Sequence record: MT833387.1
From: Escherichia phage HF4s
DNA length: 39,390 nucleotides
Strand: one strand, 5' to 3'
How positions within the stretch are numbered: position 1 is the stretch's first letter; each line of letters starts with the position of its first letter. Below, one piece after another: positions 16,071 to 36,697 of the stretch. The translations under genes and the position numbers were made by a program. The notes beneath the pieces were generated by a model. It searched no databases. It saw only the letters and a list, made by a program, of their open reading frames with translations, and had not been told where the DNA came from.

Positions 16071-17301
16071 ATTTCTGGTATATGTAATCGATACCGTAAT
16101 ATTCTCCAGCAGCTTTAGGGTTATGGAACTTATCAAGGCGATCCCCTAACCTGAAAGTGTTCTTCTCATTATATTTTGGCACTGTAATCACCTTTTCTCC
16201 AGAATGAATGCCTTTCTCTATCATTGCCACTCTGTCCAAGTATTGATTGTTTATATCTATGTAATATGATGACAACATGAAATAATCAACAAGAAATACA
16301 GGCAATAAAGTTAAAAGTAATACTGGCGTATAAAATTTTGAGATTTTCCCCTCAAATGAAGAAATTATCAGCGACAGACTTGCGAGAAGCAAAATAAAAC
16401 CAGTGGTCATAGCCCTTTGCGGATAGTAAGGTGCTGCAAACATAATTACATTCGAGCCGATTGCAAGGGCAAAGAATATAAAGGAGTATTGCATTTTTGT
16501 TTTATCATGCAGCATTGACAATGACGACAAAATAAACATTGATGTCATGATTACGATTATTAGTGCCCCATACTGCACAAGCATTTCAGGCATCCGGTCA
16601 AGCATGTGAAAGTAGATTCTTTCAGTTAAATCTTTTGAATACCATGAACTGAATGAAGGGCCGGAAGCCCTTGCTGCATTCCCAGGTGCCAAAAGCATGG
16701 AGGCAGAACCAACAAGTACAAATGGCAATAGAGCCAAATCTTTTACAGCGAAACGCTTGTTTATGAATGCCAATATACTATGACAAACGATAAATCCCAC
16801 AGAAAGCACCGCCACTGACTCATTCGATGCGCCAGCTAAAAATCCTAACGCAGCTTGTGGTATGGTAAATTTTACACCTTTCATTAAATTATTGCACAAG
16901 AGCATTAGAAGTAATGAAGGTATTAGATAATTAACAAACCCTACAACCCAAAAGGTATTTTGGCCTATGGAAGGGTTAAAAATAAAGAATGAAACCGCTA
17001 TTAAGCAGAATATAGCAGCCCCACCCTGAGCCATTCTCCTAATAACATGCATCAGAAGTATGCTAACTGTCGCGGTAACAGTTGCACTCATCGCATTAGA
17101 TTTAGCAAAAAGGATCATCGGACTAATAAAGTCTACTATGTATCTGCCGCTCCACCCCATATACATTGCAATATGCTTGTCAATGCTAAATCCAAGATTG
17201 CAGAATGCATAATCATCAGATTGCATTGGTGAAAGATAGCTTATTGCCCAAACCATCCCAAAGAAGGCAATATATGCGATAGGGTCTAAATACTTTTTCA
17301 T
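16069..17301 (-). CDS. gtrC: serotype-specific O-antigen glucosyltransferase, GtrC-type polytopic membrane protein
   Basis: 410-aa multi-pass membrane protein immediately downstream of gtrA-gtrB in the same orientation; visibly AT-rich relative to neighbours. Confidence 0.7.
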
Positions 17302-18214
17302 TTTCTTCCCTTCAGCACGTAACGAGGCCTATTCTTAACTTCTACGTAAATCCTGCCAATGTACTCACCGAGCACACCAATTCCTATTAGCTGAATACCG
17401 CCAAGAAAAAGAATAGAAACAAGGAGGGATGGATACCCACGAACCGCATTACCAAAGGCCAGGGTGTCTATAATCATCCACGCGCCGTACATAAACGCAG
17501 CACCGGCAACGAACAGGCCAATATAAGTCCACATGCGCAGTGGGAATGTTGAGAAGCTTGTGATCCCCTCAAGCGCCAGGTTCCATAGCTTCCAGCCGTT
17601 GAATTTGGTGCTTCCAGCCACTCGTTCTGCTCTGGCATACTCCACAACATCGGTACGGCCGCCAACCCAACTCAATACGCCTTTCATGAACAGGTTGCGC
17701 TCAGGCATGAGCTTAATGTTTTCTACCACCTCGCGAGACATTAGCCTGAAATCTCCAACATTTTCCTCGATCTGCGGGTTGCTGATTTTGTTATGCAGCT
17801 TATAGAACCACTCGGCGGTTTTCCTCTTCAGTCTGCCATCAGTTGAGCGGTCAGATCGTTTAGCAAGCACCATGTCAGCACCTGCTAGCCACTTTTCAAT
17901 CAGATGAGGAATGACCTCAATCGGGTCTTGCAGGTCAACATCAATAGGAATAACGGCATCACCTGTTGCATGGTCTAACCCTGCAAACAATGCTGGTTCT
18001 TTACCAAAGTTTCGTGTAAATGACAGCGGAACAACTAGAGGATCTGAAACGGACAGAGCGTTAATGATTGACTCCGTAGCGTCTTTGCTACCATCATTTA
18101 TAAAAACAATTTCCACTTCATATGGCTTCAACTCTTCGAATTCACGTACCGTTTTATAAAAATAGGTATCGCTTCCTCTTCGTTGAAGACAGGAACGACC
18201 AGAGATATCTTCAT
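17298..18214 (-). pseudogene. gtrB: bactoprenol glucosyltransferase GtrB, frameshifted after codon ~19
   Basis: ATG overlapping the gtrA stop encodes the canonical [19 protein letters not shown] and then terminates; the rest of GtrB ([10 protein letters not shown]...) continues in another frame; break at the T5 run (plus-strand A5, 18158-18162). Confidence 0.85.
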
Positions 18215-18573
18215 TTCGCATCCCTAAAGACAATGAACTTTGAATAGACGAAACCGCACACTAGGCTGATGGCGGAGAAGGTGACAAGAGTGACAATTGG
18301 AGGAAGTGCACATTTATCGGCAGCCCATCCAACAGTAGCACTCAGTGTTCCCATGAATCCTACATATAACATGTAGCGCATCGTTGTAGTCGAAGCTTTG
18401 AATGTGAATTTTGCATTCGCGAAGAAGCTAAAGCTCACAGCCACAACGAAACCTGCGAAGTTTGCAAGAGCCTGATTGGTGTGCGCGGCATAGATACATA
18501 CACCAAAAACCACCCAATGTATAAGTGTGTTCAGCACACCAATCGAGGTGTACTTTGCAAATAGCTTTAACAT
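18211..18573 (-). CDS. gtrA: GtrA flippase-like small membrane protein
   Basis: 120-aa hydrophobic protein with stop overlapping the gtrB start (ATGA); typical gtrA size and arrangement. Confidence 0.85.
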
Positions 18574-18706: not shown

Positions 18707-19900
18707 TCACTCCACCTTTTCATCAAGCCAGTCCGCCCACCACTGCATCATTTCTCTGCGCTTATCGAGATACTGAGCATGGTTGTAAATCCCACGCACA
18801 GATCCGCCGTTGGCATGTGCCAGTTGCACTTCAATAGCATCAGCAGGCCATTCGTGCTCGTTCATAATCGTGCTGAATTCATGCCTGAATCCGTGACCGC
18901 TTTCCAGACCCTCATAGCCGATTTGTTTGATCACAAGCAGTACCGCGTTCTCGCAGATTGGCTTCTTCTTATCGTTGCGCCCGGCAAAAACAAACTCTGA
19001 TACTGGTTTGGTGATTGAGCTTAGCGTAGTGAGAAGTTCAACCACCTGGTCTGACATAGGAACCACATGAATTTTGCGTCCTTTCATCACACTGGCGTCG
19101 ATGGTGATAATCCTGTTTTCAAAATCGACGTTCTTCCATAGCATGGAACGAAGCTCTTTCGTTCTTAGGGCTGTGTAGCGTAAAACTTTGGTCGCAATGA
19201 GCGATACGATACTTCCTGAAAATGTTGCCAGTGCTTTGTTGAATGCAGGGATCTGGTCTGCAGGAAGAAACGGGAAGTTCTTCTTGCGGTATCCCTTCAT
19301 GGCGTCAGCAAGGTCAGGTGCCGGGTTATATTTAGCCCTACCAGTGACAATAGCGTAACGGAAAACCTCGCCGCATCTTCTGCGGGCTTTGTTGGCTCGC
19401 TCCATTGCACCGCGATCTTCAAATCTGCGGATTACTTCCAACAGTTGCATCGGCTCAATATCCTGAATCTCAAGACCGCCGATGATGGGTAAAATGTCGT
19501 CATCAAACATTTTGGCAAGTTCAGTTGCATAGCCTACTGACCAGACTTGCTTCTTGTGCTCGTACCATTCCTTGTAAATCGCACTAAAGGAATTGTTGTT
19601 AGACGAAGCCTTTTTCGCCTTTACCGGATCGATGCCAACCGAGATGTCTTTCCTCGCAGTCCATGCTTTATCCCTTGCCTCTTGCAAAGTCATAAGCGGA
19701 TATTTTCCGACGGTCAGGATTTTCTCCTTACCGTCAATCTTGTAGCGAAGCTGCCATACCTTTTTCCCGGATACAGGGACATAAAGGTACAGGCCATTAC
19801 CATCGAGAAGGCGGTATGGTTTTTCTTTCGGCCTTGCTGCTTCAATCTGCTTAACGGTGAGCATGGGTAAAAATCCGGTGGGTAAAATTATTTTATCCAC
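18707..19900 (-). CDS. int: tyrosine integrase, P4-type (IntS-like)
   Basis: 397 aa with GTG start; N-terminal arm-binding-type domain and C-terminal catalytic domain with conserved R...H..R...Y region; attP-like sequence immediately upstream. Confidence 0.9.
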   Translation of the reverse strand: MDKIILPTGFLPMLTVKQIEAARPKEKPYRLLDGNGLYLYVPVSGKKVWQLRYKIDGKEKILTVGKYPLMTLQEARDKAWTARKDISVGIDPVKAKKASSNNNSFSAIYKEWYEHKKQVWSVGYATELAKMFDDDILPIIGGLEIQDIEPMQLLEVIRRFEDRGAMERANKARRRCGEVFRYAIVTGRAKYNPAPDLADAMKGYRKKNFPFLPADQIPAFNKALATFSGSIVSLIATKVLRYTALRTKELRSMLWKNVDFENRIITIDASVMKGRKIHVVPMSDQVVELLTTLSSITKPVSEFVFAGRNDKKKPICENAVLLVIKQIGYEGLESGHGFRHEFSTIMNEHEWPADAIEVQLAHANGGSVRGIYNHAQYLDKRREMMQWWADWLDEKVE

Positions 19901-20025
19901 TTTTTACCCGTCATGGAGTGCGGCTGTCAACGATCTGACGCGAACCATTACGAACTGTTAATCTACGGAAGGCTTGATATTCAGGGGATTTTGCGGACTG
20001 GTACGGATGGGAGCGAACTGATAAA

Positions 20026-20040
20026 TGGTGTCCCCTGCAG
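20026..20040. other. candidate attP core (reverse complement of the 3' end of an argW-type tRNA-Arg gene)
   Basis: TGGTGTCCCCTGCAG matches the complement of the tRNA acceptor 3' end, in the 213-bp gap between xis and int, as expected for P4-type integrases. Confidence 0.5.
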
Positions 20041-20113
20041 ACATCTACTTGAAGCGGCAGGGGATTGATTGGAATGGTGTTTTTTAGGTGTGAGAAATAT
20101 TTTACCCGCTATT

Positions 20114-20314
20114 TTACCCATTGGCGCGGCTTAAGAGCTTATTTTTGAATTCACAATGGTCACGATATAACCATCTTGCGCGTCCGTGGATAACTTTGGC
20201 TTTTGGCAGGTCGCCGGACTTAATCCGGTCATAGATGAAGGTTTTACCGAAGCCAGTATCGGCCATGATGAATTTCAAATCAACCAGGGAATCAGGCTGT
20301 AGTTCGTGTTGCAT
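20114..20314 (-). CDS. xis: excisionase / AlpA-family DNA-binding protein
   Basis: 66 aa with AlpA-like helix-turn-helix (IMADTGFGKTFIYDRIKSGDLP...GRARWLYRD); directly upstream of int. Confidence 0.7.
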   Translation of the reverse strand: MQHELQPDSLVDLKFIMADTGFGKTFIYDRIKSGDLPKAKVIHGRARWLYRDHCEFKNKLLSRANG

Positions 20315-20371
20315 GAGTGCTATCTCCGAATAGGGAATCGAACCTGCAAATCAGGCAATAAAAAACCGCCA

Positions 20372-20539
20372 TCAGGCGTTTTTGTGTTCTTTCAGTTCTT
20401 CAATTCGAATATTGGTTACGTCTGCATGTGCTATCTGCGCCCATATCATCCAGTGGTTATAGCAGTCGTTGATGTCCTCTGCTTCGATAACTCTGTTGAA
20501 TGGCTCTCCATTCCATTCACCTGTGACTCGGAAGTGCAT
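20372..20539 (-). CDS. small hypothetical protein (55 aa)
   Basis: ATG-initiated ORF below the track size cutoff (MHFRVTGEWNGEPFNRVIEAEDINDCYNHWMIWAQ...). Confidence 0.45.
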   Translation of the reverse strand: MHFRVTGEWNGEPFNRVIEAEDINDCYNHWMIWAQIAHADVTNIRIEELKEHKNA

Positions 20540-29607: not shown

Positions 29608-29904
29608 ATGGTTCGTGCAAACAAACGCAACGAGGCTCTAAGAATTGAGAGTGCGTTGCTTAACAAAATCGCGATGCTTGGAACTGAGAAGACAGCGGAA
29701 GCTGTGGGAGTTGATAAGTCGCAGATCAGCAGGTGGAAGAGGGACTGGATTCCAAAGTTCTCAATGCTGCTTGCTGTTCTTGAATGGGGTGTCGTCGACG
29801 ACGACATGGCTCGATTGGCACGACAAGTTGCTTCGATTCTCACCAATAAAAAACGCCCGGTGTGCAAGACCGAGCGTTCTTATCAAATACAAATGGAATT
29901 TTAA
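29608..29904 (+). CDS. cII: CII transcriptional activator
   Basis: Near-identical to lambda CII from MVRANKRNEALRIESALLNKIAMLGTEKTAEAVGVDKSQISRWKRDW...; the track N-terminal extension from 29521 is spurious because it covers nutR. Confidence 0.92.
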   Translation: MVRANKRNEALRIESALLNKIAMLGTEKTAEAVGVDKSQISRWKRDWIPKFSMLLAVLEWGVVDDDMARLARQVASILTNKKRPVCKTERSYQIQMEF

Positions 29905-36541: not shown

Positions 36542-36616
36542 GGGTCAGTCGTATAAAGGTCATTACGGAAGGCTGTTAACCTTCTTATCGTGGTTCGAGT
36601 CCACGCTGTCCCGCCA
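36542..36616 (+). tRNA. tRNA-Asn (anticodon GUU), phage-encoded
   Basis: Cloverleaf by hand: acceptor GGGTCAG/CTGTCCC (one mismatch), anticodon stem GAAGG/CCTTC with loop CTGTTAA, T-arm CGTGG-TTCGAGT-CCACG, encoded CCA. Confidence 0.55.
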
Positions 36617-36621
36617 AATAT

Positions 36622-36697
36622 GCTGGTTTAGCTCCAATGGTAGAGCAGTCGCCTTGTAAGCGAATGGGTAGCGGTTCAAGTCCGTTAACCAGCACCA
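36622..36697 (+). tRNA. tRNA-Thr (anticodon UGU), phage-encoded
   Basis: Perfect 7-bp acceptor GCTGGTT/AACCAGC, D-arm GCTC-CAATGGTA-GAGC, anticodon loop CTTGTAA, T-arm AGCGG-TTCAAGT-CCGTT, encoded CCA. Confidence 0.6.

Follow-up and report, generated by a model that had tools for sequence, protein, structure and literature searches.

Phages and prophages that integrate at argW, a family that includes KplE1, HK620, Sf6, CUS-3 and Kapi1, express int constantly at a low level, and their recombination module, of the KplE1 type, was reportedly described by Panis, Mejean and Ansaldi in 2007. In KplE1 (CPS-53), HK620, Sf6 and Kapi1 this module has the order xis/torI, P arm, the core CTGCAGGGGACACCAT, P′ arm with the int promoter and five TorI sites, and int, with the core representing the experimentally supported crossover region (PMC3509656, PMC8787464), and on the attR side its published description reaches no farther than the end of torI at its 3′ terminus (PMC2951348, PMC3509656, PMC8787464). 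The torI promoter has been called 'non-characterized', and control of excision has been argued to rest on expression of the recombination directionality factor (RDF; PMC2951348).

The window analysed here, the whole 39,390-nucleotide stretch of Escherichia phage HF4s (MT833387.1), is a complete P22-like (Lederbergvirus) genome of the HK620/Sf6 type in its attP form, with phages Louie and N7 as the closest records (97%), followed by Sf6, HK620, Kapi1 and CUS-3. Its recombination module follows the KplE1-type order, with Xis 98–100% and Int about 98–99% identical to those of KplE1, HK620, Sf6 and Kapi1, and on the minus strand a lambda-orf55-like gene, xis, attP, int, and gtrA with gtrB follow one another. 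Beyond the point at which the published descriptions end lies a short stretch identical to part of argW, referred to here as the box, which is present in K-12 too. The features of the region are as follows:

20372–20539, minus strand: lambda-orf55-like gene, with a terminator-like hairpin at its end
20360–20380, minus strand: this hairpin with its T-run, matching an element annotated as the tL4 terminator in HK022
20346–20358, minus strand: TTGC-N5-TTGC, to which the HK620 cII site (1689–1701) maps; the second TTGC forms the first four bases of the 16-nt box
20334–20349, minus strand: 16-nt argW-like box TTGCAGGTTCGATTCC (plus strand GGAATCGAACCTGCAA), corresponding to argW nt 46–61
20334–20346, minus strand: conserved 13-nt centre of the box, CAGGTTCGATTCC
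20323–20327, minus strand: GGAGA, the xis Shine-Dalgarno (SD) sequence, 6 nt downstream of the box
20114–20314, minus strand: xis, encoding the RDF, 98–100% identical to TorI (KplE1), HkaC (HK620) and gp18 (Sf6)
20099–20119, minus strand: two GGGTAAAAT repeats over the xis stop codon, P-arm Int arm-type sites by analogy with KplE1 (PMC2951348)
20041–20048, minus strand: GTAGATGT, a degenerate tRNA T-loop copy adjoining the core on its 5′ side (TTCGATGT in relatives)
20025–20040, minus strand: attP core CTGCAGGGGACACCAT, the 3′ end of argW plus one base
19930–20020, minus strand: P′ arm with five TorI sites, defined as in PMC2951348
20020–20013, minus strand: TorI site CAGTTCGC
20000–19993, minus strand: TorI site CAGTCCGC
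19957–19950, minus strand: TorI site CAGTTCGT
19947–19940, minus strand: TorI site TGGTTCGC, of the I4 type
19937–19930, minus strand: TorI site CAGATCGT
19930–19925, minus strand: TTGACA, the −35 hexamer of the int promoter, adjoining the last TorI site
18707–19864, minus strand: int, a P4/IntS-type tyrosine integrase specific for argW

The hairpin at 20360–20380 was not listed by a simple terminator scan. Directly downstream of int, at 17298–18573 on the minus strand, a gtrB-like and a gtrA-like gene (bactoprenol glucosyltransferase and flippase) form a serotype-conversion cassette, with gtr genes placed after int in the same layout as yfdG/yfdH of KplE1. A 46-codon ORF at 19981–20121 (minus strand) runs across the attP core and is a homolog of HK620 hkaB and Sf6 gene 17; it is doubtful as a gene because integration would split it. 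Elsewhere in the window, two neighbouring phage-borne tRNA genes, tRNA-Asn (GTT) and tRNA-Thr (TGT), were found at 36542–36697 on the plus strand.

The original prediction had proposed, from the letters of the sequence, that a T-arm fragment stands directly before xis at about 20335–20350, some 295 bp from the attP core, and the position given for it proved accurate to within one base. TTGCAGGTTCGATTCC, the reverse complement of GGAATCGAACCTGCAA, is identical to nt 46–61 of E. coli K-12 argW at 16/16 positions and covers the end of the variable loop, the 5′ strand of the T-stem, the T-loop and the first two bases of the 3′ T-stem, while the attP core match, CTGCAGGGGACACCA(T) at 20040–20025 of the minus strand, corresponds to argW nt 61–75. 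The two segments thus adjoin in argW with one shared base, and in the phage an interval of 293 nt that contains xis separates them. No other exact match between argW and the window is as long as either, the next being 11-mers at chance level. GGAATCGAACCTGCAA occurs once in the window even when two mismatches are permitted (expected 0.05), and when the 1.4-kb att region was shuffled 2000 times, no argW match longer than 13 nt arose. When the box was compared with the 34 E. coli tRNA 3′-side probes tabulated in PMC1851638, Arg5 (argW) matched over 16 nt, followed by Gly1 (13 nt), Gly2 (12 nt) and Phe (11 nt). A chance match is ruled out by the uniqueness, the shuffles and the comparison with 34 tRNAs. 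Likewise, the suggestion that the fragment might be a generic T-loop lacking extended identity to the same tRNA fails, since the argW match of 16 nt compares with 13 nt for the next-best of the 34 tRNAs.

On either side of the 16 nt the similarity to argW stops sharply and falls to chance level. Neither ARAGORN nor Rfam reported a tRNA or tRNA fragment at the box, with sub-threshold hits only in Rfam, and while its identity to one particular tRNA goes beyond the T-loop, it shows no cloverleaf or extended homology of the kind that marks a tRNA gene fragment or pseudogene. One such sub-threshold Rfam match, to the enterobacterial sRNA STnc130 (20264–20391, plus strand; 29 bits, gathering score 55, E = 0.036), runs antisense to the box and the start of xis as far as the hairpin, a structure that could act as a terminator in either direction; the plus strand showed no promoter-like site for it. 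The box was also considered as coding sequence and rejected, as in this window an in-frame TGA stands just upstream with no later start codon, and the upstream starts annotated or called in other lineages are not conserved. In the Salmonella phages Emek (locus L113) and g341c (locus L114), at 1935–2198 in each, the xis-like CDS is annotated from a GTG placed 60 nt before the conserved SD and ATG (ggagataaaacctATG) and takes in the box; this start is probably misassigned.

A T-arm piece separated from its core by xis had been taken to suggest a rearranged or composite attachment region, and this is not supported. The attP site has a T-loop copy of its own, reading TTCGAT-GTN-TGCAGGGG in relatives and GTAGAT-GTC-TGCAGGGG in this phage. 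For 18 lineages we compared the stretch of attP or attR immediately left of TGCAGGGG over 16 nt, where the six T-loop positions (TTCGAT) match argW in 50–94% of the lineages, the next three positions read GTN where argW has TCC, and the sequence farther left is random. Since attP therefore has a T-loop remnant contiguous with its core, the box is a second copy and not a piece split off by xis, and an insertion of xis into a 31-nt attP is ruled out on the same ground. Furthermore, comparison of the att regions of related elements, which the original prediction had put forward as a check, revealed the same arrangement in HK620, Sf6, Kapi1, KplE1, UTI89, further E. coli prophages and far more distant phages, and to judge from these sequences the box is not the product of a recent rearrangement.

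The working att site does without the box. In-vitro excision succeeds with a 135-bp attR for which the phage-side primer lies at the 3′ end of torI, so that the box is absent (PMC3509656, from the Ansaldi laboratory), and in Kapi1 precise deletion of the 17-bp 3′ attB abolishes integration at argW (0/24 colonies compared with 19/20; PMC8787464). The GGGTAAAAT repeats at 20099–20119 and the TorI sites at 19930–20020 surround the 3′ core, with none of them around the box. The two 16-mers in UTI89 and K-12 enclose a segment that leaves out torI and the P arm, and the prophage is bounded by the 3′ core. The box is thus not part of the functional att site: it does not bound the prophage, it is not flanked by Int, IHF or RDF sites, and it is not required for recombination, the last point resting on the published experiments (PMC3509656, PMC8787464).

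One public record labels the 16-mer otherwise. The att core annotation of phage CUS-3 is said to be that of King et al. (2007). In this record (CP000711) the same 16-mer, TTGCAGGTTCGATTCC, stands at both ends and is labelled 'attL core' and 'attR core', and in lysogens it forms a direct repeat, which would suit an alternative attachment core at which Int recombines at the T-arm 16-mer. However, the prophage end of UTI89, which is 100% identical to that of CUS-3, runs on past the 16-mer through ctattcggagatag, torI, the P arm and the 3′ core to dsdC (locus L009, 2560–2900), which implies integration at the 3′ core. In addition, a search with a synthetic junction found an argW–torI fusion via the 16-mer in 0/5426 complete E. 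coli genomes, which also disposes of deletion between the two 16-mers in lysogens. Together with the Kapi1 deletion and the absence of arm-type sites around the box, this makes recombination at the 16-mer extremely unlikely. The UTI89 continuation indicates that the CUS-3 record (loci L007 and L008) appears to end ~300 bp short of the real attR and to omit torI/xis, the P arm and the true attR core, with the consequence that the record appears to have no excisionase gene. The UTI89 attR core (L009, 2882–2896) reads CTGCAGGGACACCAT (CTGCAGGG-ACACCAT), one G short of the canonical 16-nt core; the missing G could impair excision, and its loss may explain why the other repeat was chosen as the CUS-3 att core. 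Downstream of torI in Escherichia sp. E1V33 (locus L013), attR identity stops after CTGCAGGGGACA and unrelated sequence follows, which suggests a different host junction or a shortened core.

We collected relatives of Xis from genomes and phages and compared the regions upstream of their genes. CAGGTTCGATTCC or a one-base variant of it was found ~19–31 nt upstream of the xis ATG in at least 11 lineages. These comprise E. coli-type prophages and phages, including the cryptic prophage KplE1 of K-12 (upstream of torI), HK620, Sf6, Kapi1 and UTI89; loci of Enterobacter, Serratia, Citrobacter, two Pantoea and two Edwardsiella; the Erwinia phages Midgardsormr38 and phiEt88; and the Salmonella phages Emek and g341c. 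A single copy is present except in Midgardsormr38, where two tandem copies of CAGGTTCGATTCC stand 16 bp apart before xis (locus L110, 1956–1984). In an alignment of the 11 lineages GTTCGATT was invariant. Mean pairwise identity across these lineages reached 0.92 over the 13 nt of the box, compared with 0.32 over the preceding 13 nt, 0.42 from the box to the SD, and 0.68 over the first 30 coding nucleotides. In lineages whose Xis proteins share just 39–51% identity, no block between −60 and +30 is thus conserved as well as the box, and the 6-nt spacing between box and SD recurs in most box-bearing lineages. The meaningful part of the 16-mer is 12–13 nt, with the extra TTG partly common to Citrobacter-type loci and Serratia (TTcCAGG).

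Among 79 E. coli-type loci there were five rare variant calls in the box, none of them in more than two loci, while the flanks carried shared polymorphisms; when viral contigs were scanned with the Xis alignment, all loci obtained were of the E. coli type and 100% identical, and they were used solely for this polymorphism count. Upstream of the box the sequence changes from element to element. At least three unrelated upstream modules are found joined to the xis module of E. coli-type elements just past the T-run, ~14 nt before the box, and in the other lineages the upstream sequence is unrelated up to the edge of the box, which makes the box the 5′-most conserved element of the xis module. 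A mosaic joint with lambda inside the 16-mer was considered and dropped, as the three modules join ~14 nt farther upstream, at the T-run.

Klebsiella phage Chronis, Erwinia phage 49, and Dryocola and Tatumella loci, all of them close relatives, do not have the box, which is therefore dispensable. Nor was it present in any of the more distant relatives examined, among them those that target variant tRNA-Arg 3′ ends: the variant-core relatives (loci L117 and L122–L128) have no box of any kind, and no matching variant box was found in relatives using a clearly different tRNA T-arm. In Proteus hauseri (locus L027) ACAGGTTCGATTCCTGTAGGGA occurs at about 4017 (minus strand), 1.3 kb from a TorI-like gene and on the opposite strand, and probably represents the T-arm of a tRNA gene whose stem is ACAGG/CCTGT.

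This pattern bears on whether the box is a neutral relic, functionless and carried along with xis, of an attP once identical to the tRNA over a greater length or of an earlier integration. Its identity to the argW segment that abuts the core fits such an origin, as does its patchy presence, by which it can evidently be lost. In the Serratia relative the argW match extends to 17/18 positions over the box stretch, and in Serratia and one Pantoea locus TG continues 3′ of the box as it does in the tRNA, which favours descent from a longer tRNA-derived stretch of which the centre was retained. An origin in a tRNA or att site is thus plausible, and to this extent the proposal of an att remnant from an earlier integration stands. 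Its decay does not: conservation so far above that of the flanks is not what neutral decay gives, the box being the best-conserved block although the Xis proteins have diverged to 39–51% identity and the sequence upstream is at random level, and attP already has its contiguous T-loop remnant. We therefore regard a functionless relic as unlikely, if still to be reckoned with. On this comparative evidence the box is instead an old cis-element that borders the xis module on its 5′ side and appears to be under purifying selection across many phages and prophages that integrate at argW.

The role that we tentatively put first, without regarding it as probable outright, is that of a predicted double-stranded DNA site, most likely bound by Int, that limits transcription into xis. 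The box would act as double-stranded DNA, a protein-binding site controlling xis. Int is the likeliest binder because the box is identical to the left half-site of attB, including the TTCGAT found beside the attP core as well, and binding would be through its core-binding and catalytic domains. Retention of TTCGAT to the left of the attP core in relatives, with per-column matches of 0.5–0.94, marks it as a likely core-type contact of Int. Int on the box, perhaps with a bridge to the arm-type sites where the 201-bp xis gene ends, would limit xis transcription, and less Xis would favour integration and a stable prophage. There are points against this proposal. A lone core-type half-site usually binds Int weakly, and no convincing inverted partner half-site was found for the box. 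Conservation covers 12–13 nt, beyond the 6 nt (TTCGAT) kept at the core-type position of attP, the near-fixed distance to the SD would equally suit a role at the RNA level, and several close relatives do without the box.

Phage phiEt88 helps to separate Int from the other candidate binder, TorI/Xis itself, which might bind GTTCG inside the box and autoregulate xis. Published TorI sites are 8-mers around GTTCG, GATCG or GTCCG (PMC2951348), and the box contains GGTTCG, as does site I4 (TGGTTCGC); the box of Emek and g341c has AAGTTCG, and P′ arm sites of these two phages include AAGTTCT and CAGTTCT. However, both end positions of the site in the box differ from the 8-mer consensus and the five published sites, and the box is a single site without phased repeats, with two copies 16 bp apart in Midgardsormr38 alone. 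Conservation also extends over ATTCC, beyond the RDF motif. In phiEt88 the presumed RDF sites are of the form GTWAC (GATGTAAC and GCGTTAC), not GTTCG, and the arm-type sites read GGGCATA, with Xis 39% identical; none-the-less the box is unchanged (AGGTTCGATTCC). The phiEt88 Int is 74% identical overall and, as read from the pairwise alignment, ~85% identical beyond residue ~100, with lower identity in the arm-binding part at the N-terminus. Since the box is kept while Xis, the RDF sites and the arm-type sites differ, the common factor is recognition of the argW core by Int, or a host factor. A TorI operator is accordingly a reading to which we give little weight, and Int remains our preferred binder.

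The constant spacing before the SD raises the further possibility of an RNA leader, in which the pyrimidine-rich 3′ part of the box (UUCGA/AUUCC) pairs with the SD region and lowers translation of Xis. Part of the box does pair with UCGGA or GGAG in the minimum-free-energy folds of several lineages, the spacing between box and SD is mostly 6 nt, and the C-to-T variant in two lineages would preserve a G-U pair. Against this, RNAalifold found no consensus pairs in the 11-lineage alignment, and single-sequence folds had z-scores of −1.6 to +0.9, no more stable than shuffles; with no consensus pairs and z-scores within noise, a structured RNA element is not supported. The pairing partner varies by lineage, the SD sometimes pairs outside the box, and the invariant GTTCGATT is longer than any proposed helix. 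A weak pairing of UUCGA/AUUCC with the SD is possible, and a leader that controls Xis translation seems to us quite improbable as the reason for conservation.

The box has a second public label. HK620 annotates a 'phage integration' promoter at 1664–1702, corresponding to 20321–20359 of the window, together with a cII site, which would make the region a cII-dependent promoter (pI) whose TTGC repeats bind CII and which drives transcription toward xis and int when lysogeny is established. Lambda pI resembles this locus in following the orf55 terminator, in lying ahead of or inside xis, and in having TTGC repeats, TTGC-N6-TTGC standing at the equivalent position. In addition, a pRE-type box, TTGCGTTTGTTTGC, is present in this phage at 29617–29630 (minus strand), with N6 spacing; it matches the cII-binding box of lambda pRE exactly, and this phage probably has a lambda-type CII/pRE circuit. 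However, the repeats before xis are spaced by N5 and not N6, a pattern found at chance frequency, and while in lambda TTGC-N6-TTGC is followed directly by GGAGA and ATG, here 18 nt (AGGTTCGATTCCCTATTC) intervene before GGAGA. A promoter of the lambda pI type would have TTGC-N6-TTGC over its −35 and a −10 ~12 nt downstream; this arrangement is not present at the box, where no −10 or −35 promoter match was found. Furthermore, the first TTGC reads TTAC in K-12 and in 19/79 E. coli-type loci, the other box-bearing lineages are without TTGC repeats, and a promoter upstream of xis makes Xis together with Int, which is ill-suited to integration. Such a promoter is very unlikely to account for the box, and both public labels of the 16-mer, as att core in CUS-3 and as cII-dependent promoter in HK620, are doubtful.

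Within the proposal of an Int site, a more specific form can be formulated, in which the box, its variable spacer of ~6 nt and GGAGA together make a pseudo-attB that Int occupies to shut off xis. The arrangement box–6 nt–GGAGA is colinear with CAGGTTCGATTCC-TGCAGG-GGACA in argW and looks like a pair of half-sites with a variable spacer between them, a hint of weak statistical support (p about 0.02 at fixed register, with GGAGA being needed as SD anyway). We consider this specific form unlikely, to judge from the sequences compared; if true, the integrase would sense a copy of its own chromosomal target and set the direction of recombination by repressing the RDF. We know of no description of integrase control of RDF expression via an attB decoy. 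With either form, a conserved box copied from the integration target and placed before xis is a candidate for the missing control point of excision.

A full-text search for the box sequence gave tRNA-probe papers and one unrelated yeast paper, with no paper on the box in a phage context. The recombination module and the annotation of the repeat are already known; no description was found of the repeat as an argW-identical box that selection has kept in front of xis in distant phages. Among known systems, the box is comparable to the core-type half-sites (B, C) of heterobivalent tyrosine integrases such as lambda Int. It differs from these in standing alone, 293 nt from the core, outside the minimal att site and without an identical overlap region; it resembles them in matching the attB sequence to the left of the crossover, with TTCGAT as in attP.
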